Shown here in pieces: positions 7,069 through 47,497 of a stretch of DNA of 64,000 nucleotides. The stretch is from an uncultured bacterium (GTDB taxonomy: Bacteria; UBP15; UBA6099). Position 1 is the stretch's first letter. Every line of letters starts with the position of its first letter. Below the pieces are notes generated by a model, which did not search any database, was not told the DNA's origin, and was given only the letters and a program-made list of their open reading frames with translations. The translations under genes were made by a program, and so were the position numbers. The stretch covers positions 2,355 through 66,354 of the forward strand of contig CAYPEK010000008.1 in the NCBI GenBank assembly GCA_964409645.1. The letters run 5' to 3'.

Positions 7069-8529
7069 CTACCGGCGGCTGTTCTGGAAGTATGATTCGC
7101 AATTTTTCTGAAGCGGCTCTGAGAATTCTGCTGCAGAGAAGCCGAACCCGTTCCAGTGATACATATCCGTTCTTGTATTATCCGCGCCGACGCCGGGGGC
7201 AAGGAACGTGTCGCCCCGGTGAAATGCGCAGAGGGCGCAGCCGTTGCCGCATAAAACTGTGGCGTCGATGAGCGGCCGTGCGAGCGCCGAGCCGCGCCAG
7301 AGCGCGACGAGTTTCTTATCCGTGACCCGATAAACGTGCGGTCTGGGCGCAATCTCGTTGTCGATGTCGGAAAAATGCTCCTCGATTGAGACGAGTTCCG
7401 GGACACTGTCACCATCGAGATCGCCTGCCGAGACGGAATCGAGAACGCAGCCATTCGACTCCCACAGTTTCTTTCCATTTTTGTATCCGGCAATCGCCGT
7501 TTTTCCACCGGGCCTGCTGACGCCTTTCAACGTCACACCTTTGAAATCGGGCAGTTTATTCATCGGAAACGCAAACTTTTTACCGCCCGCATTTTGAGAA
7601 TTGGCAACCGGAAAGTATGTGCCGCCCGGGACGTGTGTTGCGATACCGTGACACGTGATGTTTCGCGAAATGGCGTCGGCTTCACACACCACGGCGAGCC
7701 CGCGCTTCGTTACGTCGTATTTCTGGTCGAACAGGTTGTTGCCGAGCGAATAAAAAACGGGATTGCCGCCGACTTCGCCCGGTTCGATCACGACATGTGG
7801 ATGGCTGCCGATGATGGCGTCCGCGCCTGCGGTGAACAGTTTCCGCGCGACTTCGTTCATCTTCTCATCCGGCCAGTCGCGAAGCTCGATGCCCCAATGA
7901 ATGAAGACGAAAACCGCATCCGAGAGGGCGGCAGCAAGTCGCACGCGCCGAATTACCGGCTGCCATTCCATGTCGTCGTCAATTACGACATCGCCGCCCG
8001 TGAGATCGAGCGGAACCACCGATATAGTGACACCGTCCGCGGTTTTGAACCACGGCGATTCGTTGAAAACGAGCGAGTCAACGCCGTTCTTAGCGAGAAG
8101 AGCGGCGGTTTTGGATTTGCCGGCGGCGCCGGTGTCTGTCGAATGGTTGTTTTCGAGCGACATCGCGGTGAAGCTGGCCTTGCGGAGGAGCTTTAGCCGT
8201 TCGGGTTTAATGTGGAAACACAAGTTAGCGGGGATTCCGGCGCGGCAGTCGGATTTGCCGCCGGCCGCGCCTTCGAGATTGCCGATGACGGCGTCCGCGC
8301 CGAAGAACAGTTTTTTCATACCGGCCCACGGATTGCTGTCGGGCGATTTGCTTATCTGCGACTCGACCAGCCGGGAAAGAAGGACGTCGCCGACAAAAAC
8401 AATTTTCATTTTTTGCGGCTGCGTTCTTTTCGTCCCCTCGCCCGTAGCGCAGACCACAACCGCCATAAGGACAGCGAAAGCCGCAACGGCGAGCAGCGTT
8501 CTCTTCTTTTGGCTCAACTGTTTGCACAT
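7069..8529 (-). CDS. CapA (PGA_cap) family metallophosphoesterase with C-terminal extension
   Basis: GDVLL, GNLE, LENNH, IHWG, GSHPHV and YSLGN motifs; N-terminal membrane anchor; GDLDGDSVPELV Ca-loop-like motif in the extension. Start could be GTG 8550. Confidence 0.85.
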   Translation of the reverse strand: MCKQLSQKKRTLLAVAAFAVLMAVVVCATGEGTKRTQPQKMKIVFVGDVLLSRLVESQISKSPDSNPWAGMKKLFFGADAVIGNLEGAAGGKSDCRAGIPANLCFHIKPERLKLLRKASFTAMSLENNHSTDTGAAGKSKTAALLAKNGVDSLVFNESPWFKTADGVTISVVPLDLTGGDVVIDDDMEWQPVIRRVRLAAALSDAVFVFIHWGIELRDWPDEKMNEVARKLFTAGADAIIGSHPHVVIEPGEVGGNPVFYSLGNNLFDQKYDVTKRGLAVVCEADAISRNITCHGIATHVPGGTYFPVANSQNAGGKKFAFPMNKLPDFKGVTLKGVSRPGGKTAIAGYKNGKKLWESNGCVLDSVSAGDLDGDSVPELVSIEEHFSDIDNEIAPRPHVYRVTDKKLVALWRGSALARPLIDATVLCGNGCALCAFHRGDTFLAPGVGADNTRTDMYHWNGFGFSAAEFSEPLQKNCESYFQNSRR

Positions 8530-8590
8530 TATATGTTCCAAGAATACCACACCTGCGGGAATGACAAAATGAAGGCTATAAATAAAAGAA

Positions 8591-8628
8591 GGGACAGGCT
8601 CGCGGGGGGAGTGTGCGATACCTGTCCC
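8591..8628. repeat. GGGACAGG...CCTGTCCC palindromic element (family E)
   Basis: 8-bp perfect arms at 8591-8598 and 8621-8628; a related element GGGACTGGCA...TGCCTGTCCC lies at 50583-50619. Confidence 0.55.
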
Positions 8629-8671
8629 TGTCTTTTCAGGCTTAAGGCCTGTTCCACTTACTTCCTTAATA

Positions 8672-11600
8672 TCAATCGCTACAGGTTTTCGTCGAGCAGC
8701 AGGCGGGAATGGGCGCTTTGCTCGAACAGAGCACCGCGCTGCTGACGTCGTAAACGCTGTCGATTTTGGAACCGTAGGAATCCTTCATGGCAAGTATGTC
8801 CGTCAGGTTGATGGTGCCGTCGTTATTGAAGTCCGCCCAAGCGCGGTAGCATGTTTCGCCGGATTTCGCGCCGTAGGCGTTTTTGATCGCCATAATGTCC
8901 TGAAGGTTGACTGAGCTGTCGCAGTTCGGGTTACCTGCGTCGCCGCCGCCGTTTCCTGAGGCACCCGGCAGATCGAGCACGTTCACAGTGATTGAATTGG
9001 CGGTGGACGGAAGGGTGACTGCCTTTTTGAGAGTAACGTAGCAGTAATCGGTCGTTTTGGATGTGCAAGCGACCGGACTCGAACTCACCGGCATTCTGAG
9101 TCTCACAGTGTAAGTGACGCTCGAAGCTCCGATGGGCGCTTTCATGTCCGGTGGTTTGCCGACGTTGTCGGTACTGACTGTCGAAATAACCGTGTCTGGT
9201 GAAGATGTCTGAACCAACTCGATCCTTGTGTCGGTAAGAGCGGTGTATGTATAAGTTGCTTTGGTCTTCATGCAGTCGGTAGTCGAAGCGCATTGCGGAT
9301 CGGCAATCGAGTAGTATCTGATTTCGCCGTTCGTGCCTTTCCCATTCACTTTGACGGTGTTCGGACAGTCGGTGCAGGTGTTCGGTTTGATGTGAATTTT
9401 GCCGCCGGTGGATGAGGGCAGGGTGGAAACTGTTTTAGCCGATTCGCCGGATGTGGCGTTCGCATACGAAACCCACACGTAATAATCGCTTTCGTTGATC
9501 GAAAGGGACGCGAGGTCCGTTCCTGTTTTTATATAGTCCGTGCCGGCCTGCTGTATGACGGATGTGTTGATTTTTTTGAACGTGTCGGTGCATGAAGCTT
9601 CGACGTTGTATTTACAGAGGTAGAGATTGTAGCCTTCGCCGGAGTCATACGCGCTGTCGTCATCGGCCGATGCTACCCAGTTGACTTTCAGGCCGTACTG
9701 GGAGTCGTATTCGTAGGCGGAGACGGCGCCGGGGGATTTGAGTGTCGGCCCTTCCGAACAGGTGAAGCAGTTGGCGAGGTCGGACGCGTTGTATTTATCG
9801 CTGATGTTTCCGGCGAGGTCTTTTGCGGTTATGCAGTAAGAATATTTTTTGGACGAAGTGGTTTCCACTTGGTCCGTGTATTCGGTGTCGATGAGCTCGG
9901 CTGCGTCGTCGAGCAATTCGAAATCGGATGCGGAATCACACTGCGACATGTCGCCCTCGCATCTGTAAACCGAATACGAAATTGTGTCTTTGTCGCTGAC
10001 GGCTGCCCATTTCACGATGTTTCCGCCCTCTTCGGAGCTATAGAAGGAGTTCTCCGTGTCCGCGACCGGTTTCGCTGGCGGCAGAGTGTCCGCCGGGACG
10101 CACTCGACCGGGTCGGGCGTGTCAGGATCGCGGGAGACATTGCCGGCGGCGTCGTATCCGTAAACGCGGTAGCAATATATGGTGCTGTTTGTCAAACTTG
10201 TGTCCGTATAATTAGGAGTTGTCATAGCGTTAAGAGTTGCAACGGGCGTTCCGCCGTCTTTGGGCGAAGTGATTGTCGTTTTCGAGCAGTCGTTGTTAAC
10301 AGCGGGGGCGCGCATGACGTAGTATCCCGATAATTTGAACGGGTCGGGATTGTTGCAGTCGGCGAAAGTTCCTTCGCTATCTTCTCCCGTGCAGATTTTG
10401 TTCCATTCGAGCTTGCACTTGTTGCCTTCAACCGGCGGGGTTGTCTTGATCTCTTTGCCGTCGGACTGGTTTTCGGGCCATCTGGGCGCAAGCGTGTCTG
10501 TGGGGATCATTATCGGGCCGCATTTCAGGTATGTGGTCATAGTGTCGAAATTGCTGCAATTCGGTGAGGTTTTTCCCGGGCACGTGCCGACAGTTGTGCA
10601 GTTGTCGCATGCCTCGACGTAGAGGCACCAAATGTCGCCTTCGTTTTTGAAGCCGGATGTGACAGAGCAGGAGAGAGTTTCCGGCGTGCTTGGGTCGTTC
10701 TTCGTGCAGAGGACGGCGTATCCGTTGGTTGTTGCTGTTTCTTCTTTTGTATCGCAGGAGCCGGGTTTCGCGAGATCGTCGAAACAGCCGTAGAGATTGT
10801 ACGTTGCGGCGTCGATGTCGGAGACAGGTTGCCAAGTAGCATTTATACCGAGTTGGGTCATGTTGTAAGTAATGCTGAGAGTGTCGGGTTTGGAGGGCGA
10901 CTTGAGGTCCTGTGGCGTGCAGGATACGGTCGTCCAGCCCGATTCGTTGTTGCCGACATCGATGGCCTGAATCGAGTAGGAATAAGAGAAGCCGTTTGTG
11001 AGCGCGCTGTCGTTGTCGGTGAACTGTTCTCCGAGAATTATGGCGCCGTTGAGCTGTGAGTTGTCGCGCTTGATGTTGTAACCGTAGAGGCTGGGGTCGG
11101 ACGTGTCCGGAGACCAAGTGCAGAAGCATTTGCTTTCGCTGCCGTCGGGTGTGGAACAGGATGCGCCCGTCGGCGCGGCGGGCGGCATCCAGTCTTCCAC
11201 ACGGCACGGAGCCGTGGTTGCTGACCAGTCTTTCTGAGCGGTTTCGAGGCCGGTTTTGCCGACGCTCGAAAAGAAGAAGTAATGTTTGCTTCCGTCCAGC
11301 GATGCCTGAGGAACGGTGTAAGTGACGGAGTTCGAACTTGTGAGGTTGGTTGTGATGTCGAGATCGGAAAGATATACGGCGGTTGCGGCGTTGTTGGTCG
11401 TGTTGTGATAGACCTTGTATTTCGATACTGAGCTTGCGTCCGGCGATGAGTAGATGTCGATGATGCACTGATTGTTGTCCGGGATGGCGGAGCTCTTGAC
11501 GCACTCGGGCGCATCGCCTGTGCCGTTTGCTTTGCACGTTGTGCTTTTGAACAGCGGCGCCGCAGGGACGGTTACTTCATCGACAACTTTGGCTTCTTTC

Positions 11601-12919
11601 GTATCTTTGATGAGCATGAGTCCGGACGTGAGGTCAACAAGCCAGAACGGGATGCTGCCTGTCACGTCGATCTCGCCCGTGAGTCCGACGATTTTAAGGG
11701 AGTTGGATGTACTGCCGAGAATGGTTTTGTCGCCGGTTTTTGTGGACACCGCATTTTTTGCGATGAACGTGAGCATGTGGTTGTTGGAGCCGATCTTGAG
11801 CTTGGATTCCCCTTCGTTTCCGACCACGATCTTGCATCCGAGGATATCCGATGTATTGGGATTGGAAACGCATTCGCCGTCCCAGAGGACGCTGACGAGG
11901 TTCTTATCCAGTCCGGAGGCCTCAGGAGCGTATGTGATCGCGAAGACATTCGGGAAATAGAGGTCCGCCGGGTTAGGGTCCGTGATATCCGGGTTGAAAA
12001 ACATAAGGAGATACCCTTCGATTGGTCCGCTGCTGGAAGTCGGCGCGGAACCCTTGATGCGGATGTTTGCGCAGACGACATCGTCGTTGGGAAGCGAAGC
12101 GTATCCTTTTCCGGCGCTTGCCGCGAAGCCGAGAATGTCGCTGTTCTCCGAGGAGACTAAAGACTGATTTCCGCTCGTATCCGGAACGCCGCAGGTGTCG
12201 CCCTCCGTGTCATTGATGGAGTAGTCCGCCGTCCCGGCGCAGCCCGGTGTGCCGGTATAATTTTTGGCGCACTGTTCGTACGAACTTGCCATCGAGCAAT
12301 TGTCCGAAGCGGGAGTCTGATAGACGTAACGCCACGAAGTAAGACTTGTGCAGGAAGCGGTTTCCTTGTCGGGGAGCATCGAAACGGAGTTGCCTCTGCT
12401 GTCTGACGCAACGATGTAGTATTTGATGATATCGTCTTTAACCCAAGAGGAATCGACCGGAATATCCGCCTTGAATTTGCCCGTCGATTCGTCGTACTTC
12501 ATCGAAGCCGACATCGGATTATCGACATCGGGGTCTATGTAATAATATACGACAGGATTGGCCGCGCCGGTTTTTTTGCAGGACGAGTCGGGCATTCCGG
12601 GTTGGCCGTTTTCATTCGGGATGCAGGGCGGATTGGGCGAAATATCGGTGTCGGTTTTCATGTACCATTCACTCATGGCGCAGTCGGTTCGGTCGCAGGC
12701 GGCTCCGCAACAGGCTTTCTGTTGCAGATCGCCCTCGATCGTCGCATAAACTGTGAATGTTTCGGCGCCGGCCCTGATGGCGGTGTTGGATATCCCGGAT
12801 ATTTTCGGTGTAAAGGGAATCGTGGGAATTTTAAAAACAAAATTTGGTGCAGCCGTACTTGCAGTTGAAAATACTGATAGTAAGCTGATGAATGCAAGGA
12901 AACCCAGTAGCTTTTTCAT
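8672..12919 (-). CDS. Giant Cys-rich secreted protein (1415 aa) with about 6 FN3-like domains and a C-terminal dockerin-like double Ca-binding loop
   Basis: Signal peptide, GGGAGG RBS. Repeated P-x-x-P linkers (VPAAP, MPPAAP, SPSKP, APRWP, LPPAKP, SPGAV) before W...Y.(I/V)Y(R/K)-type FN3 strands. C-terminal NPNCDSSVNLQD...DFNNDGTINLTD. Confidence 0.8.
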   Translation of the reverse strand: MKKLLGFLAFISLLSVFSTASTAAPNFVFKIPTIPFTPKISGISNTAIRAGAETFTVYATIEGDLQQKACCGAACDRTDCAMSEWYMKTDTDISPNPPCIPNENGQPGMPDSSCKKTGAANPVVYYYIDPDVDNPMSASMKYDESTGKFKADIPVDSSWVKDDIIKYYIVASDSRGNSVSMLPDKETASCTSLTSWRYVYQTPASDNCSMASSYEQCAKNYTGTPGCAGTADYSINDTEGDTCGVPDTSGNQSLVSSENSDILGFAASAGKGYASLPNDDVVCANIRIKGSAPTSSSGPIEGYLLMFFNPDITDPNPADLYFPNVFAITYAPEASGLDKNLVSVLWDGECVSNPNTSDILGCKIVVGNEGESKLKIGSNNHMLTFIAKNAVSTKTGDKTILGSTSNSLKIVGLTGEIDVTGSIPFWLVDLTSGLMLIKDTKEAKVVDEVTVPAAPLFKSTTCKANGTGDAPECVKSSAIPDNNQCIIDIYSSPDASSVSKYKVYHNTTNNAATAVYLSDLDITTNLTSSNSVTYTVPQASLDGSKHYFFFSSVGKTGLETAQKDWSATTAPCRVEDWMPPAAPTGASCSTPDGSESKCFCTWSPDTSDPSLYGYNIKRDNSQLNGAIILGEQFTDNDSALTNGFSYSYSIQAIDVGNNESGWTTVSCTPQDLKSPSKPDTLSITYNMTQLGINATWQPVSDIDAATYNLYGCFDDLAKPGSCDTKEETATTNGYAVLCTKNDPSTPETLSCSVTSGFKNEGDIWCLYVEACDNCTTVGTCPGKTSPNCSNFDTMTTYLKCGPIMIPTDTLAPRWPENQSDGKEIKTTPPVEGNKCKLEWNKICTGEDSEGTFADCNNPDPFKLSGYYVMRAPAVNNDCSKTTITSPKDGGTPVATLNAMTTPNYTDTSLTNSTIYCYRVYGYDAAGNVSRDPDTPDPVECVPADTLPPAKPVADTENSFYSSEEGGNIVKWAAVSDKDTISYSVYRCEGDMSQCDSASDFELLDDAAELIDTEYTDQVETTSSKKYSYCITAKDLAGNISDKYNASDLANCFTCSEGPTLKSPGAVSAYEYDSQYGLKVNWVASADDDSAYDSGEGYNLYLCKYNVEASCTDTFKKINTSVIQQAGTDYIKTGTDLASLSINESDYYVWVSYANATSGESAKTVSTLPSSTGGKIHIKPNTCTDCPNTVKVNGKGTNGEIRYYSIADPQCASTTDCMKTKATYTYTALTDTRIELVQTSSPDTVISTVSTDNVGKPPDMKAPIGASSVTYTVRLRMPVSSSPVACTSKTTDYCYVTLKKAVTLPSTANSITVNVLDLPGASGNGGGDAGNPNCDSSVNLQDIMAIKNAYGAKSGETCYRAWADFNNDGTINLTDILAMKDSYGSKIDSVYDVSSAVLCSSKAPIPACCSTKTCSD

Positions 12920-13076
12920 GAGTCGGCCTCCCTATTTACAGTCCCCTCAGCCTTTGCCGTCAACTTGCCGAGAGGTACCGGATTTCTGCTTTCAAGCTCC
13001 TGTTTACGAATCGGTTTTGATCGATTTGTCCGAAAAAATGATCTTTCGGTATCGGTCAAAATCAAATAAACAAAGG

Positions 13077-13092
13077 TGCAATTTTTTTGCCA
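13077..13092 (-). promoter_or_regulatory. Sigma54 (-24/-12) promoter upstream of the giant secreted protein
   Basis: Minus strand TGGC-AAAAAAA-TTGCA has the exact TGGC-N7-TTGC spacing, about 160 nt upstream of ATG 12919. Confidence 0.65.
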
Positions 13093-13287
13093 CCGCCAAA
13101 AATAATGGAAAATGGAGGTCAAATATGCTTTTAATTAAAAGCATATTTGTTTGTCGGTGACAAATGGCCAGAAGAAGAAGCGAGGAGTGTTGGTTGTTGC
13201 GTTTTTACAACAGGTGTTGCAGTTTTGTCATATCGAAAACGGGATGTCGGCAAAAGCAGAGGTTGAGATATGTTTGTAAAAAGTGTG

Positions 13288-13377
13288 ACGTGACCGCTTG
13301 CTGACGCGCGCGGCTCTGTTAAATAACATTGATTCGTTTGTTTTATCCGAGCCGCGCGCGTCAGCAAGCGGTCACGT
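13288..13377. repeat. Inverted pair of REP-like family A copies (BIME-like)
   Basis: ACGTGACCGCTTGCTGACGCGCGCGGCTC (13288-13316) and ATCCGAGCCGCGCGCGTCAGCAAGCGGTCACGT (13345-13377) share 29-bp perfectly complementary arms. Confidence 0.85.
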
Positions 13378-13519
13378 GGAAGGATGAAAGAGCAATACGA
13401 GTAGTAGGGGGGCAGGGCTTGCGACTTGCGGGTTTGGGAGGATAAAAAGTAAGGCGGAACATGTGAAACCCGCCCTGCATTTTTTCTATTGTCTATTTCT
13501 TACTGTTGTATCTCCGGCA

Positions 13520-16500
13520 TTATTCTTCGAGTTTCGGCTGTCTTCTCTCGCGCATCTTTTCTATCGGCGCTTCGACGAGCGCGTAGAGTGTCGGGATGAA
13601 GATGAGCGTCAGCGTGGTGCCGATTGTCAAACCGCCGATGACGGCTCTTCCAAGCGGCGCGTGCATCTCGGAACCGGTGCCGATGCCGGACGCCATCGGT
13701 ATGAGCGCGAGGATGGTCGCGAATGATGTCATGAGGATGGGCCGCAGTCGCAACCGTCCGGCGGTGATGACGGCGTCTTCGAGCGGGATGCCTTTTTCAC
13801 GCAACTGGTTTATGAAGTCGATCATGATGATTGCGTTTTTGACGACGATGCCGACGAGCATGATGACACCAAGGTAGGCCATCAGGCTGAGGTTAGTGTG
13901 AGTTACATATAAAGCGAGCAGAACCCCGAGCAGTCCGAACGGAACGGTGAATATAATTAGGAGCGGATGGAGCAGGGATTCGAACTGTATTGCCATGACC
14001 ATGTAAACGAGGGCGATTGCGAGGAATAGGGCGAGCAGCATGTCCGCGAATGCTTGCTTGCGTTCTGTTTCCTCGCCTGCGAACTCGACTGAGAAGCCGC
14101 GCGGGATGTCGAGCTCTCTAACGTGTTTCGTTATCTCGTCGTTGACAGTTCCGGGGGCAACATCACCTGTGTATGTGGCTGAGATGGAGACGACACGCTC
14201 CTGATCCGTGCGTTCGATCTGAACGGGGCCGACTTCTTGTTTAAGGGTGGCGAGCCCCCGGAGTGGAACGGGCGGCGCGCCTGACGACGAGATCAGAATA
14301 TTGCCTATGGAGCTCAACTGTTTTCTGTCTTCGGGGCGAAGCCGCACGCGGATGTCGAACTCGTTTCCCGCCCGGCGGAACTGAGAGGCGATTGCGCCCT
14401 CGATGCTCGTGTTGACGATGTCGCCGACCTCGCTCGGGCTGAGTCCGAGCACGCCCGCTTTTTCTCTGTCCGTGATTACATTTATCTCAGGCTTGCCGGG
14501 TGTGCGTGAGACGCGCGGGTTTGTTGCCCCAGGCACATTCGATATGATATTGGAGACTTCCTGTGCGAGCTTGTCGCCTGCGGCAAAGTCGTGTCCCCGT
14601 ATGTCGATTTCGAGACGGCTTTCGGAACCGCCGCCGAGGATGCGTTGCATTATCGAGCCACCCTCCATAACCCATAGCTTGCCGTGAGCGATGGGCATCA
14701 GCTTCTCGCGCAGGTCGTTGGCGACGTCGGTGACGCTTCTTTTTCGCTCGCCGCTGGGAGTCAGAACAATTCTTAAAGAACCAGTGTTCGAGCCACCGCC
14801 ACCGCCCATGTATCCGCCGCCGCTGCCGGCCTGTGTGTACATGTTCACCATTTCGGGCACGCTCTCGATTATGACTTTTTCGAGCCTCGCGAGCTCTTCG
14901 CGGACGACTTCGAGTTTTGTCCCGACCGGTAACTCGATGCTCACGTTGACTTGTCCTTCATCCACGCTCGGAAGATATTCCTTTCCAATGTGTGGTAAGA
15001 GAACATAGGCTCCTCCAGCAAACACGATCACTACTGAAACAATTGTCAGTAGGCGGTGCCTCAGTGTAACGGTCAGGACTCTTCCATAGAATGCATATAT
15101 GCCGCGCTCCTCTGTTGCTGCTTCTTCGTGCCTATGCACCTTGATCTTGAGCAGCCGCGAGCACAACATCGGGACCAGTGTCATCGATACCACTAGTGAC
15201 GCGAGTAGCGAGACGGTTACTGTGACCCCGAGTTCCTTAAAAAATATGCCGCTCATACCTCCGATGAACACTAGCGGCCCAAACACGCACACAGTCGTGA
15301 ATGTCGAAGAAGCGACCGCGGCGGCGACCTCGCGCGCGCCGTTTATGGCCGCCTCGAAGCGGCCTTCGCCTTCCTTGCGATGCCGGTATATGTTCTCGAG
15401 CATGACTATGGCGTCGTCAACTATCATGCCGATGCCGAGCGTGAGCCCGCCGAGAGACATTATGTTTATCGTCAGGCCGGTGAAGTACAGCACTATTATG
15501 GTGGCGATAAGCGAAAAAGGCACCGACAGCGATATGATGAACGTTGAGCGGATGTTTCGTAGAAACAGGAACAGAATGATAATGGCGATTATGCCGCCGC
15601 CGATGCCGTCGCGGCGCAGGGCACCAATCGAGTCTTTGACCATCTGCGAAGTATCCCTCATTATGCCGATCTTCGTTCCGGCCGGAAGCATGTTGGTGAT
15701 TTGTGCGATTTTTTCCCTTACCGCATCTGCAACTTTTACCGTATTTTCTCCTGACTGCTTGCGGACTTCGACTAACACTCCGTTGCGGCCCATCAGTTTG
15801 ACGTCCGACCGTTTTTCCGCGATGCCGTCGAACACATTGGCTACATCCCTGATGTAAACCGGCACACTGCCTTTGTATGCGAGTACGACTTTTTTGATGT
15901 CTTCCACGCTGGAGAACTCGCCGCGGTTGCGGACGAGGAACTCATTGTCTCCGTTCTCGACGTAGCCGCCGGGGATGTCCTGATTTTCATTTTTGATCGC
16001 GCTCGTAACAGAGCTGATCGGGATGCCAAGCGAGGCGAGTTTCGCTGCATCGACGTCAACACGTATTTCTCGCGTGTCGCCTCCAGACGAATCAACAGAT
16101 GCTACTCCGGGAATCTGCTCAAACCTGTATTGAATCTCGTCGTCAACGTAGTCTTTAAGGTCAACGGCGGCCATGCTGCCTGTCACGGTGAGTTGCATCA
16201 CCGGGATCATCGATGTGTCGAATTTGGAAATGATTGGTTCGTCGGCGTCGTCCGGGAGCTGGCGTTTAGCCTGTCCGATTTTGTCGCGGACATCGTTCGC
16301 CGCCTCGTCCATGTTCGTGCCCCACGAAAACTCGATTCGGATGCTCGAAGAGCCTTCCGAGGAGGTGGACGTCACTTTTGTTACATTGCTGATGGTGGAC
16401 GCGGCGCGTTCGAGCGGCTCGGTTATCAGGCGCTCGATCTCCTGCGGGCCCGCCCCGCTGTACGTGGTGCGCACCGAAATTACGTTGCGCTCGATGTTCG

Positions 16501-43144: not shown

Positions 43145-43175
43145 AAAAGGGCGGGTTTTGAGGCCCGCCCTTTTT
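43145..43175. terminator. Bidirectional terminator (duplicate of 44561-44591)
   Basis: AAAAGGGCGGG-ttttgagg-CCCGCCCTTTT. Confidence 0.85.
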
Positions 43176-43196
43176 ATTGTTGCTTTTGCGCTAATC

Positions 43197-43274
43197 TTAT
43201 CTGCCGAAGATTCCGATGCTGCAAACGCTCATGGCGGGGAAGCCGCCGAGGTTGTGCGCCAGCGCGAGGTTGTC
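43197..43274 (-). pseudogene. Detached 3' end (about 25 codons) of a thiolase gene
   Basis: Encodes DNLALAHNLGGFPAMSVCSIGIFGR*, against DKLALTHNLGGFPAMSVCSIGIFGR* in the intact thiolase ending at 44614. Confidence 0.85.
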
Positions 43275-43439
43275 TTGGGCACACGGCTTTTCCGTTTTGC
43301 AGTTCAAACACGCGCTTGATATAATTGATAAATGGCAAGGCCATTCGGGGTGGGGAATGAAATCAATGGACAAATCGCAAAGCACTATACCCGACTCGGA
43401 ACTTCCCGACATGTTAAGATCATCCTGCGAGGACAAAAT

Positions 43440-44540
43440 ATGATAGCTGCGCAGCTTGTGCCTAAGCGGACATTCGGTAATACCGGCGTGAAGATATCTA
43501 AGCTCTGTCTTGGCGGCGGGTCTTTCGGGAACTCCGACGGTCAGGCTTTGCTCGATGAAGCTCTGAAGTATGGCGTGGATTGCTGGGAGGTCGTATCGTT
43601 TACCGGAAAAGTATATGGCGAATATTTCAAAAAACATTCCGATATGCGTGAGAAGATATTTTTGACGGGGAAAGTGCATTTTACGGATCCGGCTGCGATG
43701 GAGAAGCAACTGGATGATATGCTCGTTGAAAACGAAACATCTGTTATCGACTTTCTCGCTGTGCATGTGCTGGACAATACCGAGGTGCTTACAAACGATA
43801 TTCGGAAATGGGTGGAGAAGCTGAAAAAGGAAAAGAAAATTCGTTTTTTCGGGTTCTGTACCCACAAAAATATGGACAGATGCCTTTCCAACGCCGCCGA
43901 TCTTGGTTGGATAGACGGTGTTCATACTGTTTATAGTTACAGGATGCAATGTGTCAAAAGTATGGAAGACGCTTTTCATAAATGTTACGAAAAAGGTGTC
44001 GGGATATTCGCTGTTAAGTCGATGGGGCTGACCGTTCTGAGGAAAACGGAACGGCAACCTGATGAAGAGAAATTAGATGCGGCTTTATCCGGCCACAATA
44101 TAACATTTGAGCAGGCGAAGCTGATGTCGATCTGGCAAAATCCCGCTTTGACATCGATCTGCTCTCTCATGTCGAGCCCGGAGATCGTTCAATCCAATGC
44201 CTCGGCGGCGGTGAATGAGGCTGCGCTCGATGCGGAGGTTCAAAAACTGCTTTCGGATTATGCCGACAGCACTTCAAAGTATTTCTGCCGTCGCTGCGAT
44301 CAGTGCGAAGCGGCAAATGCTGATAAAGTTCCTATCTTTGATATTATGGAATTGCTTATGTATTCAAGAGGATATGCTCGAATGGAAATGATCGCAAAAA
44401 AGTTCATGCAGATACCTGTTGAGGTCAGAAACAGGATGAGTCACAGCGATTATTCGGTTGCTGAAAAGATGTGCCCGCAGAAAATGCCTATAGGGCAGCT
44501 AATGAAGGAAGCCTGTGATGAGTTCACCACCCATTCGTGA
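43440..44540 (+). CDS. Aldo/keto reductase with C-terminal Fe-S-type Cys motifs
   Basis: PKRTFGNTGVKISKLCLG, KIRFFGFCTH and IFAVKSM motifs; FCRRCDQC and KMCPQKMPI. More AT-rich than the flanking genes. Confidence 0.88.
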   Translation: MIAAQLVPKRTFGNTGVKISKLCLGGGSFGNSDGQALLDEALKYGVDCWEVVSFTGKVYGEYFKKHSDMREKIFLTGKVHFTDPAAMEKQLDDMLVENETSVIDFLAVHVLDNTEVLTNDIRKWVEKLKKEKKIRFFGFCTHKNMDRCLSNAADLGWIDGVHTVYSYRMQCVKSMEDAFHKCYEKGVGIFAVKSMGLTVLRKTERQPDEEKLDAALSGHNITFEQAKLMSIWQNPALTSICSLMSSPEIVQSNASAAVNEAALDAEVQKLLSDYADSTSKYFCRRCDQCEAANADKVPIFDIMELLMYSRGYARMEMIAKKFMQIPVEVRNRMSHSDYSVAEKMCPQKMPIGQLMKEACDEFTTHS

Positions 44541-44560
44541 GCGCGTTTTTTGGAGATGAA

Positions 44561-44591
44561 AAAAGGGCGGGTTTTGAGGCCCGCCCTTTTT
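44561..44591. terminator. Bidirectional terminator between the thiolase and aldo/keto reductase genes
   Basis: AAAAGGGCGGG-ttttgagg-CCCGCCCTTTT. Confidence 0.85.
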
Positions 44592-44613
44592 GATTGTTGC
44601 TTTTGCGCTAATC

Positions 44614-45819
44614 TTATCTGCCGAATATTCCGATGCTGCACACGCTCATTGCGGGGAAGCCGCCGAGGTTGTGCGTGAGTGCGAGTTTATCCGGATATTT
44701 GATCTTCCGTTCTTCCGGCACTCTGCCGAGTATCTGCAGGTAGCACTCGTAGATCATGCGGATGCCCGACGCGCCGATGGGGTGGCCGAAGCATTTCAGG
44801 CCGCCGTCCGGCTGGCAGGGCACTTCGCCCTTGAGGTCGTAGAAGCCGGCGTCGATGTCTTCCTTCGCTTTGCCGACGGGAGATATCTGCAGGTCTTCAT
44901 ACGTCGCGAGCTCGGTGATGGAGAAGCAGTCGTGGACTTCCATCATGCCGATTTCTTCGCGCGGGTTTTTGACGCCCGCTTCGGCGTACGCGCGTTTTCC
45001 GGCTTCGCGGGTCGGCATTACGTATGTGCCGTCCCAGTCGGTGTAGAGGAGTTCTTCGCCCGACGTGCAGGCGATCTGGAGCGCCTTGACGCGGATGAAG
45101 TCGTCGCCTTTGAGCTTCTTGGCGATTTCGGGTGTTGTGACAATCGCACAGGCGGCGCCGTCGCTGACGCCGCAGCAGTCGAAGAGTCCGAGCGGCTCGG
45201 CGATGATCGGGGCTTTCATGATCTGCTCGACGGTGGCCGCTTTGCGGAGGTGCGCTTTAGGGTTGAGCGCGCCGTTGGCGTGGCTCTTCGCGGAGATTTT
45301 CGCGAGTGTCGTTTTGCCTTCGTCGCGGGAGAGTCCGTACTTGTCGAAGTAGCGTGTTGCCATCATCGCGAATCCGCCGGGGGCGGTGATGTTGGCGAGA
45401 ATCATTCGGTTGCGGGTGCCCATGGCCTGACCGAAATCGGGAAGGCCGCCGTAGCCGGTGTCTTTGAGTTTTTCGACGCCCATCGCGAGCGCGATATCGA
45501 CTGCGCCGGAAGCGACCGCATAGACGGCGCCGCGGAACGATTCAGTACCGCTGGCGCAGAAGTTTTCGACGCGGCTGCAGGGGATGAACGGGAGTTTGAG
45601 CGCGAGCGAGATCGGGATCGCGGATTTTCCGACGTTGATCTCCTCGAAGCAGACGCCCATCCACGCCGCCTGAATGTCTTTCTTTTCGATGCCGGCGTCC
45701 TTGATGCATTCGGCGAACGCTTCCACCATCAGGTCGTCGGCGCCTTTGTCCCAGTGCTCGCCGAACTTGGTGCAGCCCATTCCGATAACTGCAACTTTAT
45801 CTCTGATACCTTCAGCCAT
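44614..45819 (-). CDS. SCP2/archaeal-type thiolase (acetyl-CoA acetyltransferase)
   Basis: VENFCASG catalytic Cys, EVHDCFS, GHPIGASG and HNLGG motifs. Confidence 0.92.
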   Translation of the reverse strand: MAEGIRDKVAVIGMGCTKFGEHWDKGADDLMVEAFAECIKDAGIEKKDIQAAWMGVCFEEINVGKSAIPISLALKLPFIPCSRVENFCASGTESFRGAVYAVASGAVDIALAMGVEKLKDTGYGGLPDFGQAMGTRNRMILANITAPGGFAMMATRYFDKYGLSRDEGKTTLAKISAKSHANGALNPKAHLRKAATVEQIMKAPIIAEPLGLFDCCGVSDGAACAIVTTPEIAKKLKGDDFIRVKALQIACTSGEELLYTDWDGTYVMPTREAGKRAYAEAGVKNPREEIGMMEVHDCFSITELATYEDLQISPVGKAKEDIDAGFYDLKGEVPCQPDGGLKCFGHPIGASGIRMIYECYLQILGRVPEERKIKYPDKLALTHNLGGFPAMSVCSIGIFGR

Positions 45820-45820
45820 G

Positions 45821-47278
45821 TCAGTTCGCCTCCTTTCCGGGGGCGGGCACAGCTTTCCATGCGTATCCGCAGATTCCGCGCCCTTCGTCCAGATATTTCA
45901 GCCGGAACGATACTTCGACCGGCATTTGAACTTTCATCGACTTGATGTCCACGTCTGTGAAATCGATCCAGAGGCGGCCGCCGCCGTCCATGTCAACGAG
46001 CCCGTAGATTGCGGGCGGGTCGTAGCTGAATGCCAGCATGTCGCCGGTGAACGTGAACAGCTTGCCGGTTTTGCCGGCGAAGCGGTATGGCTCCATCTGG
46101 TCAACTGCCTGACATTTCGGGTTCGCGCAGATGCGCTGTGCGGGGTATTGCGGGGTTCCGCACGCTTTGCACTTGGAGCCGACGAGGCCGAGCACGATGC
46201 GGCGGTCGCGGCCGAGCGTCGAGAGCGCTGTGGGCGCCGGGGCTTCTCCGCGGATTCCGACTTCGAGCGGCTGAATGCCGCGCCACACCATGTATTTCTC
46301 GTAGTTGTTGAGCTCTTTGCGATTCGCGAGGGCCGCTTTGACCGCGCGCCGGGCCGGAAGTTGCGTAATGGCATCCGTGACCTGAAACAGGAGCACATCC
46401 GCGCCGCTGCCGTAGCCGACCACGACGATCTTGTCGCCGGGTTTCGCGTCTTCGAGGGCCGCCGCGAGCATCAGGCCCGCCTGAGCGGCGCCGCAGTCGC
46501 CCACGTTCGCCGACATCGGATCCTGTATCTGCTCGGGAGCGAGACCCATCTTTTTGCCGAATGCGCTCATGTTGGCGCCGAGGCCGATCACGAGTTTCGA
46601 GATCGTGTTGGGCATTACGCCGAGTTTCTGCGCCGCGCCCATGACCGCTTCGGGCAATATTTTCGATACGCCCGCGTCACGCACCCAGCGCTCTTCCCAC
46701 ATGCGGACGAACTTGTCGCCGTTCATGCGGCGCTGATCCGCGAAGTCGTAGGAAACCGAATGCGAGCCGAGGAATTCCGCGATCACGTTTTCGGAGCCGA
46801 AGAGGAAGGCCGCGCCGGCGTCGCCGAAGAGGTGTTCGAGCGCGCCGCCGGGTTTTCCGAGTCTGCATTCCGACATGCAGGCGAGCGATTGTTTCGCGCG
46901 GCCCGCCGCAACCGCGTCGAGCGCGGAGAGCATTGCCGTGGTGCCGGCCTTGAGGCCGCCGGTGACGTCCGATGTGCCGACGTCTCCTTTGAGGTCGAGC
47001 GCGCCGGAGACTATCGACGCGTTCATCCGTTCGATGTAAGGCAGAGTGGTCGAGCCGACGAAGAGCGCGTCGATCTTCCCGGCATCGAGCCCCGCGAGGC
47101 AGTTCATCGCCGCGTTTGCCGCAAGCGTGATGCTGTCCTCGTCGTAATTGCAAACCGAGCGTTCGCCCTTTGCGATGCCGGCCGTGAACGGGGCATACCA
47201 GCCCATGGCCTGAAAGATCGCCTGCCGCTGGAGCCTGTAGCGGGGGATGTACGCTCCGTACGAGGTGATTCCAACCAT
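45821..47278 (-). CDS. HMG-CoA-synthase-like domain fused to DUF35 (Zn-ribbon + OB-fold)
   Basis: MVGITSYGAYIPRYR, ERSV.NYDEDSITLA and GDAGAAF motifs; C-terminal CKACG...CANPKC zinc ribbon and OB-fold; 1-nt gap to the thiolase. Confidence 0.88.
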   Translation of the reverse strand: MVGITSYGAYIPRYRLQRQAIFQAMGWYAPFTAGIAKGERSVCNYDEDSITLAANAAMNCLAGLDAGKIDALFVGSTTLPYIERMNASIVSGALDLKGDVGTSDVTGGLKAGTTAMLSALDAVAAGRAKQSLACMSECRLGKPGGALEHLFGDAGAAFLFGSENVIAEFLGSHSVSYDFADQRRMNGDKFVRMWEERWVRDAGVSKILPEAVMGAAQKLGVMPNTISKLVIGLGANMSAFGKKMGLAPEQIQDPMSANVGDCGAAQAGLMLAAALEDAKPGDKIVVVGYGSGADVLLFQVTDAITQLPARRAVKAALANRKELNNYEKYMVWRGIQPLEVGIRGEAPAPTALSTLGRDRRIVLGLVGSKCKACGTPQYPAQRICANPKCQAVDQMEPYRFAGKTGKLFTFTGDMLAFSYDPPAIYGLVDMDGGGRLWIDFTDVDIKSMKVQMPVEVSFRLKYLDEGRGICGYAWKAVPAPGKEAN

Positions 47279-47497
47279 AGAATCGCTCCTTTCATGAAAT
47301 ATTTATTTTGAATCATTAACAGCAGAGATATTCTGAGAGAGTTATCCCGGCCGGGAGCATTCTACATCGGGGCGTGCGCGGCGTCAATGTGTGATTTTTT
47401 TCACATGGTTGCGCGGCGTGCGGGCCGCGTAATTTTTTGTAACGGTTTTGACGTTTTGTGATAGAATAGGACGTCAAAATTGACTCTGAGGTGGTAC

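Follow-up and report, generated by a model that had tools for sequence, protein, structure and literature searches.

Organization of the locus and domains of the fusion protein

The window, a stretch of 64,000 nucleotides from an uncultured bacterium (UBP15; UBA6099), contains a gene for a protein with HMG-CoA synthase (HMGS)-like and DUF35 domains (P0001) and a gene for a thiolase (P0002), and both open reading frames were confirmed on the minus strand where the first-pass annotation had placed them (Table 1). The thiolase gene starts 1 nt downstream of the stop codon of the fusion gene (AAC-TGA-C-ATG), and GGAGG lies within the end of the upstream gene, so that the two genes are expected to be translationally coupled. 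A sigma-70-like promoter match is located approximately 80 nt upstream of the fusion gene start, and the strong hairpin beyond the thiolase gene is probably a bidirectional terminator common to the pair and a convergent aldo/keto reductase gene. As the flanking genes, the aldo/keto reductase gene on one side and a divergent gene for a GH42-like protein on the other, are located on the opposite strand and are unrelated to the pair, the pair was regarded as a self-contained two-gene operon. Genes for an amidohydrolase and a DUF1828/1829 protein also lie nearby. No PKS/NRPS gene was present beside the pair among the neighbouring genes inspected, and no beta-oxidation gene neighbours the pair either here or in the same-family genome G003.

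Table 1. Features of the thiolase locus in the window and domains of P0001
Feature	Position	Strand	Basis or remark
Fusion gene (P0001), 485 aa	45821..47278	minus	ORF check and Pfam/NCBIfam
Thiolase gene (P0002), 401 aa, SCP2/archaeal-type	44614..45819	minus	ORF check and NCBIfam
Junction: GGAGG in 3' end of fusion gene, TGA, 1 nt, thiolase ATG	45817..45835	minus	
Sigma-70-like promoter match, TTGACG-17-TAGAAT	47359..47387	minus	match to consensus only
GC-rich hairpin between A and T runs	44560..44591	strand-neutral	22 nt past thiolase stop
HMGS-like thiolase-fold domain, P0001	residues 1-334		NF003274, TIGR00748
Linker, low-confidence, P0001	residues 335-362		AF2; disordered at about 335-354
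DUF35 4-Cys zinc ribbon, P0001	residues 365-391		Pfam/NCBIfam
DUF35 OB fold, P0001	residues 400-459		Pfam/NCBIfam

The HMGS-like and DUF35 domains are carried on a single polypeptide encoded by one continuous ORF. P0001 scored 201.6 bits against NF003274 and 153.5 bits against TIGR00748, under the respective cut-offs of 244 and 353. The four zinc cysteines of the DUF35 module (C370, C373, C384 and C389), which had been described as kept, are indeed all present and are invariant among the 120 closest relatives. P0001 alone was modelled as a single chain with AlphaFold2 from an alignment of 32 relatives (mean pLDDT 82, pTM 0.86). The top Foldseek matches of this model were the PhlA-type structures 9skh, 5mg5 and 5m3k (ranks 1-3), archaeal HMGS and MucA (9vbo), with target-normalised TM-scores of 0.83-0.89; superposition on archaeal HMGS 6et9_I gave an rmsd of 2.3 Å (TM 0.89, normalised to the target). 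In HMMER, the HMGS-like domain matched PhlA at 1.4e-36. Members of the family are variously annotated as 'hydroxymethylglutaryl-CoA synthase', 'ACP synthase III C-terminal domain protein' or 'OB-fold protein'.

Loss of the catalytic tetrad in P0001 and intact motifs in P0002

The catalytic tetrad of archaeal HMGS is E82/C114/H238/N270 (PMC12960953), and the numbering of 6esq_I in our HMMER alignment agrees with the published tetrad, as the Cys of 'efaCkagt' falls at position 114. P0001 was aligned with PhlA (5m3k), the PhlA-like protein 9skh and archaeal HMGS 6esq_I, and Leu109 occupied the position of the nucleophile Cys114 in all three alignments, in agreement with the Cys-to-Leu replacement for which a comparison with archaeal HMGS and PhlA had been proposed as a check. 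The 6esq_I alignment further placed Gly232 of P0001 at His238, Thr77 (GSTT) at the catalytic Glu82 (GSES) and Asp261 at Asn270. As Glu82 and Asn270 are replaced as well, the loss extends to the whole E-C-H-N tetrad, beyond the Cys and His already recognized as missing in the first-pass annotation. The same replacement (E82/C114/H238/N270 to T77/L109/G232/D261) was obtained with MAFFT when a live bacterial HMGS that is not fused was aligned as control (L116:3229-4275, reading GSES, EFACKAGT, FHMPNG and GNT). Also in this alignment were the muc-like dead HMGS encoded on a Priestia plasmid (L113), a dead form without the fusion (L117), and the fused proteins of Variovorax, Azoarcus, Streptomyces, Rhodococcus and Natrinema; none of the fused proteins in it retained the tetrad. 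Among the 120 closest relatives, the Cys column contains Leu, Thr, Ile or Val in 111, with Cys outside the five commonest residues, while Thr77 is shared by 109 and Asp261 by 89.

The Glu of the 'DED' motif had been described as kept. This residue, Glu47, is conserved, yet it is distinct from the catalytic Glu, whose position is occupied by Thr77. No substitute Cys was found at the nucleophile position: C262 (VGDCG) is replaced by Thr in 82 of the 120 relatives, and Cys134 and Cys138, which are semi-conserved (79/120 and 72/120, respectively), are both located away from the nucleophile elbow. The former His loop of P0001 carries a clade-specific two-residue deletion; beyond this deletion P0001 showed no unusual feature, and its zinc site is intact. 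Identification of P0001 as a genuine archaeal-type HMGS was rejected on the grounds that its scores are below the curated cut-offs, Glu, Cys, His and Asn are all replaced, and the search of the genome for HMG-CoA reductase was negative.

In comparisons with the orthologues of the same-family genomes G003 and G007, approximate dN/dS values of 0.11-0.13 were obtained for the dead domain, compared with 0.08-0.10 in DUF35 and 0.05-0.07 in the thiolase; these values are rough due to the saturation of dS. A ratio of 0.11-0.13 indicates that the dead domain is under purifying selection and thus clearly maintained. An archaeal quadruple mutant, E82C/C114G/H238Q/N270D, is inactive (PMC12960953), its residues apparently having been copied from MucA/PhlA. 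The corresponding residues in P0001 are T/L/G/D versus C/G/Q/D in the mutant, which hints at loss histories separate from those of PhlA and MucA.

P0002 scored 637 bits against NF004810 (PRK06157; cut-off 403) and contains the N- and C-terminal thiolase domains. Its motifs are intact, as the first-pass annotation had stated for the Cys and His motifs: the nucleophile Cys88 (CAS), HDCF at residues 296-299 and GHP at residues 345-347. Cys88 was invariant, in CxS context, in the thiolase alignment, and the P0002 motifs align with those of the thiolase adjoining the live HMGS L116, while the muc-like control thiolase of L113 reads 'LYD-MG' instead of HDCF. P0002 matched the archaeal thiolase 6esq_A with 192 bits and BbsB with 142 bits, whereas PhlC-type chains reached only 59-66 bits. 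A DUF35-associated retro-aldolase of the Ltp2/Sal type was also considered for P0002 and rejected, as that type is without the nucleophilic Cys and P0002 keeps Cys88.

Distribution of the family and its gene context

A protein search with the fusion generated 3,107 matching protein clusters out of 8,000 candidates scored, and a one-genome-per-species collection contained at least 549 confirmed loci. Carriers among the matches listed include Syntrophales, Desulfobacterales, Dehalococcoidia, Bacillota, Actinomycetota and Planctomycetes MAGs, as well as the cultured Desulfosarcina alkanivorans PL12 with two loci, L046 and L066. Plasmid records added Variovorax, Azoarcus, sphingomonads, Rhodococcus, Mycobacterium and haloarchaea; no Pseudomonas homologue was present among the plasmid-record matches. 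The thiolase system is thus very widespread, and it is common in anaerobic degraders. In nearly all loci with sufficient downstream DNA, the fusion (46-54% identity) is followed by an orthologue of the thiolase (58-72%). Beta-oxidation classes (acyl-CoA dehydrogenase, hydratase, SDR, CoA ligase/transferase) were counted in 58 loci with at least eight ORFs; at least one class was present in 48 of these loci, at least two in 38, and at least three in 25. The annotated cassettes of Variovorax, Azoarcus and Rhodococcus concur with this context, the gene order in Variovorax being SDR - MaoC - fusion - thiolase - acyl-CoA dehydrogenase - CoA transferase. A longer fusion ORF (708-988 aa) with an added SDR domain was found in 15 of 80 loci. 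The one long form that was scanned with Pfam, in locus L074 (910 aa), has the arrangement dead HMGS-DUF35-SDR-SCP2; the protein encoded ahead of it is an MFE-2 hydratase-SDR-SCP2 protein of 703 aa. These fusions to the two preceding beta-oxidation activities are the strongest sign of a family role in acyl-CoA breakdown.

The host genome carries a single copy of the fusion, and the fusion gene is present in five of seven same-family genomes. Synteny with G003 is limited to the two genes (83% identity for the thiolase and 71% for the fusion), the flanks being unrelated. The host genome contains two further DUF35 genes, one of which adjoins another thiolase, and its genes for acyl-CoA dehydrogenases and enoyl-CoA hydratases are numerous and dispersed; ETF and CoA-transferase genes are present as well. 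Neither an HMG-CoA reductase gene nor a second HMGS-like gene was found in the host genome, which is 95% complete, and a role in the mevalonate pathway was dropped for this reason. P0001 is not an HMGS, and its presence should not be read as a sign that this uncultured lineage has a mevalonate pathway. Since beta-oxidation genes do not neighbour the pair here or in G003, the catabolic role proposed below is carried over from distant relatives with 47-54% identity.

Proposed function and relationship to known complexes

A complex of the same design, PfACAT/HMGS-DUF35 of P. fluorescens, has been characterized (Nat Commun 2026;17:2196, PMC12960953). Its HMGS-DUF35 protein is fused and without E-C-H-N, and its ACAT retains Cys, HDxF and GHx. 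The complex produces neither HMG-CoA nor acetoacetyl-CoA from acetyl-CoA; it cleaves acetoacetyl-CoA thiolytically, and the H294Y mutation in HDxF nearly abolishes the cleavage (PMC12960953). In the same study, 1,030 bacterial loci in which HMGS, ACAT and DUF35 genes lie together were mined, 1,001 of them without secondary-metabolism (PKS/NRPS) genes, and the fused type was read as an evolutionary intermediate with no pathway assigned (PMC12960953). P0001 and P0002 show all features that mark the Pseudomonas type at the sequence level, namely the fusion, the loss of the tetrad, the thiolase motifs and the absence of PKS/NRPS neighbours. Judged by these features, the pair is a further member of an already published, very common bacterial family. 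Neither another characterized member of the fused family nor work on this family in anaerobes was found in a literature search.

The pair is probably a degradative 3-oxoacyl-CoA thiolase with a non-catalytic scaffold, of the PfACAT/HMGS-DUF35 type. This was one of two functions suggested in the first-pass annotation, and it is the one favoured by the evidence, including the assayed Pseudomonas type and the beta-oxidation context of the relatives. The products of the two coupled genes would assemble into one thiolase complex, in which the thiolase would be the sole catalytic subunit and the fused partner would perform no condensing chemistry. By homology, a 3-oxoacyl-CoA would be attacked at its 3-oxo carbon by Cys88; acid/base chemistry would come from the HDCF loop (His296 and Cys298), His346 would stabilise the enolate, and CoA would release acetyl-CoA together with a shortened acyl-CoA. 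The dead HMGS-like domain most likely forms the dimeric core and one wall of a shared CoA-binding chamber, and the DUF35 zinc-ribbon/OB module may clamp the thiolase, by analogy with the solved archaeal, PhlACB and MucABC complexes. Candidate substrates are acetoacetyl-CoA and 3-oxoacyl-CoAs that are longer or branched.

Thiolases are reversible enzymes, so that the sequence is compatible with either direction of the reaction. A biosynthetic complex would use Claisen condensation to form acetoacetyl-CoA or elongate an acyl-CoA, for a storage polymer, for butyrate-type fermentation, or for ACP-independent synthesis of fatty acids of the kind carried out by the archaeal DUF35-mediated synthase. 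Such a complex is consistent with this reversibility, with the nearest solved thiolase being the archaeal biosynthetic 6esq_A (192 bits), and with the stand-alone pair of this phylum, which gives no catabolic context. There is also a precedent for synthesis in an archaeal DUF35 protein that brings a ketothiolase together with a reductase and a dehydratase (bioRxiv 10.1101/2024.07.05.601840). However, the pair has lost the exergonic HMGS reaction by which condensation is driven in archaea, acetoacetyl-CoA was not formed from acetyl-CoA by the Pseudomonas complex (PMC12960953), and the neighbours of the relatives (acyl-CoA dehydrogenases, ETF, CoA ligases/transferases) are marks of breakdown. 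We consequently consider synthesis unlikely and infer breakdown as the direction of the reaction.

The other function first suggested was a PhlABC-like acyltransferase, that is, a Friedel-Crafts C-acyltransferase like PhlACB or MucABC which would transfer the acetyl group of acetyl-CoA to a phenolic or tetramate acceptor. PhlA is among the best matches to the dead domain in both sequence (1.4e-36) and fold (Foldseek ranks 1-3), and PhlACB has an equal three-part make-up including a non-catalytic HMGS-like subunit. The thiolase subunit nevertheless makes this function very improbable, since P0002 keeps HDCF, which is missing from PhlC/MucB-type subunits (PMC12960953), and scores only 59-66 bits against PhlC-type chains compared with 192 bits against the archaeal thiolase. 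In addition, no PKS/NRPS gene was found nearby, and acetoacetyl-CoA thiolysis, which the fused Pseudomonas type performs, is missing in PhlACB and MucABC (PMC12960953). It is scarcely credible that the HMGS-like domain still condenses via another nucleophile such as Cys262, Cys134 or Cys138. Cys262 adjoins the residue aligned with Asn270, and the other two are semi-conserved; against this, no residue of the tetrad is left, most relatives have Thr in place of Cys262, the archaeal quadruple tetrad mutant is inactive and the Pseudomonas complex yields no HMG-CoA (PMC12960953), and HMG-CoA reductase was not found in the genome.

Within the degradative reading, a more specific and rather doubtful possibility is that the dead HMGS::DUF35 protein serves as the scaffold of a bacterial beta-oxidation metabolon, docking MFE-2-type hydratase/dehydrogenase and a lipid-binding SCP2 domain onto the SCP2-type thiolase. 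If so, the metabolon would mirror, on the catabolic side, the DUF35-mediated fatty-acid synthase of archaea, and the approximately 910-aa deadHMGS-DUF35-SDR-SCP2 proteins of Desulfobacterales would join covalently what other carriers, this one among them, assemble non-covalently. At the family level, the beta-oxidation neighbourhoods and domain fusions speak against the published suggestion of an idle evolutionary intermediate. The practical value of these results lies in the annotation of family members.

The archaeal thiolase/HMGS/DUF35 complex (6ESQ) shares with the present pair its three modules, an HDCF-type thiolase (192 bits) and an HMGS-like fold (2.3 Å, TM 0.89), but its HMGS is active and its DUF35 is a separate protein, whereas here the HMGS-like domain is dead and fused to DUF35; it feeds the mevalonate pathway, which is apparently missing from this genome. 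PhlACB of P. protegens (5M3K/5MG5) and MucABC of S. macacae (9VBO/9VBT) likewise combine a tetrad-less HMGS-like subunit, DUF35 and a thiolase-fold catalytic subunit. They differ in that their thiolase subunit is without HDxF and has a remodelled acceptor pocket, and in that they are encoded by three separate genes within secondary-metabolite clusters. The benzoylsuccinyl-CoA thiolase BbsAB of G. metallireducens (7PXP), which acts in a modified beta-oxidation, resembles the pair in its SCP2-type HDxF thiolase (142 bits) that needs a DUF35 zinc-finger partner, though this partner, BbsA, is without the HMGS-like domain of P0001. Compared by published features, PfACAT/HMGS-DUF35 shares the HMGS::DUF35 fusion, the loss of the tetrad, the adjacent thiolase with Cys, HDxF and GHx, and the PKS/NRPS-free context; it comes from another phylum, and for the present pair the neighbourhoods of relatives indicate beta-oxidation.

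Catalytic residues in fused and unfused HMGS-like proteins

Loss of the catalytic tetrad of archaeal HMG-CoA synthase (HMGS), E-C-H-N, does not go hand in hand with fusion to DUF35, because unfused versions of both kinds are present in two genomes sampled as relatives of the window's genome. The HMGS of L116 is live and retains all four residues, while the HMGS-like gene of L117 is dead though unfused (T/T/Q/D in place of the tetrad); each adjoins a gene for an HDCF thiolase.

The residue immediately C-terminal to the lost catalytic His position was Cys in 94 of the 120 closest aligned relatives of P0001, the window's dead HMGS-DUF35 fusion (consensus YPCPREH). P0001 and its clade relatives P0003 to P0010 carry a two-residue deletion at the former His loop, and Leu or Ile replaces this Cys.

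Coordinates of the loci and features compared
Feature	Location	Remark
L116 pair, live HMGS and HDCF thiolase	L116:3229-5478
L117 pair, dead unfused HMGS-like gene and HDCF thiolase	L117:913-3113
Former-His region, clade deletion	P0001 residues 231-237; window about 46570-46590	(-) strand
L114 thiolase and fused dead HMGS-like::DUF35	plasmid CP031304, 3823-6428	Natrinema thermotolerans
Direct repeat, 130 nt	window 43145-43274 and 44562-44691
Aldo/keto reductase gene	window 43332-44540	flanked on both sides by repeat copies
L113 muc-like trio	plasmid CP109765, 4992-7770	Priestia megaterium
L074 long-fusion locus	7806-13960

Distribution of the fused form and the repeat in the window

The fused dead form extends beyond bacteria, since haloarchaeal megaplasmids, L114 among them, carry a thiolase gene and, directly after it in gene order, a gene for a dead HMGS-like::DUF35 fusion with 25-28% identity to P0001. 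Within the window, the direct repeat (85% identity between copies) consists of the final codons of the thiolase gene and the terminator hairpin. As its copies bracket the aldo/keto reductase gene, insertion of this gene or duplication of the repeat site is suggested.

Likeness to known acyltransferase and beta-oxidation systems

The L113 trio comprises a dead HMGS-like gene, a thiolase gene without HDxF, and a zinc-ribbon protein gene. Condensation-domain and NRPS genes begin some 0.7 kb downstream of this muc-like trio, which makes L113, from a relative of Bacillus, a candidate cluster for Friedel-Crafts acyltransfer.

Fifteen loci (L074, L073, L038, L044, L055 and 10 others) have a dead HMGS-DUF35 ORF extended to 708-988 aa with an added SDR domain; the hosts are Desulfobacterales and Syntrophales MAGs. 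The L074 fusion (about 910 aa), the one scanned with Pfam, reads dead HMGS-DUF35-SDR-SCP2. At L074 a gene for an MFE-2 hydratase-SDR-SCP2 protein of about 703 aa precedes the long fusion gene, which is followed by the thiolase gene; such sets often lie behind a TetR gene. The long-fusion set resembles a peroxisome-like MFE-2/SCPx beta-oxidation set on a dead-HMGS scaffold.
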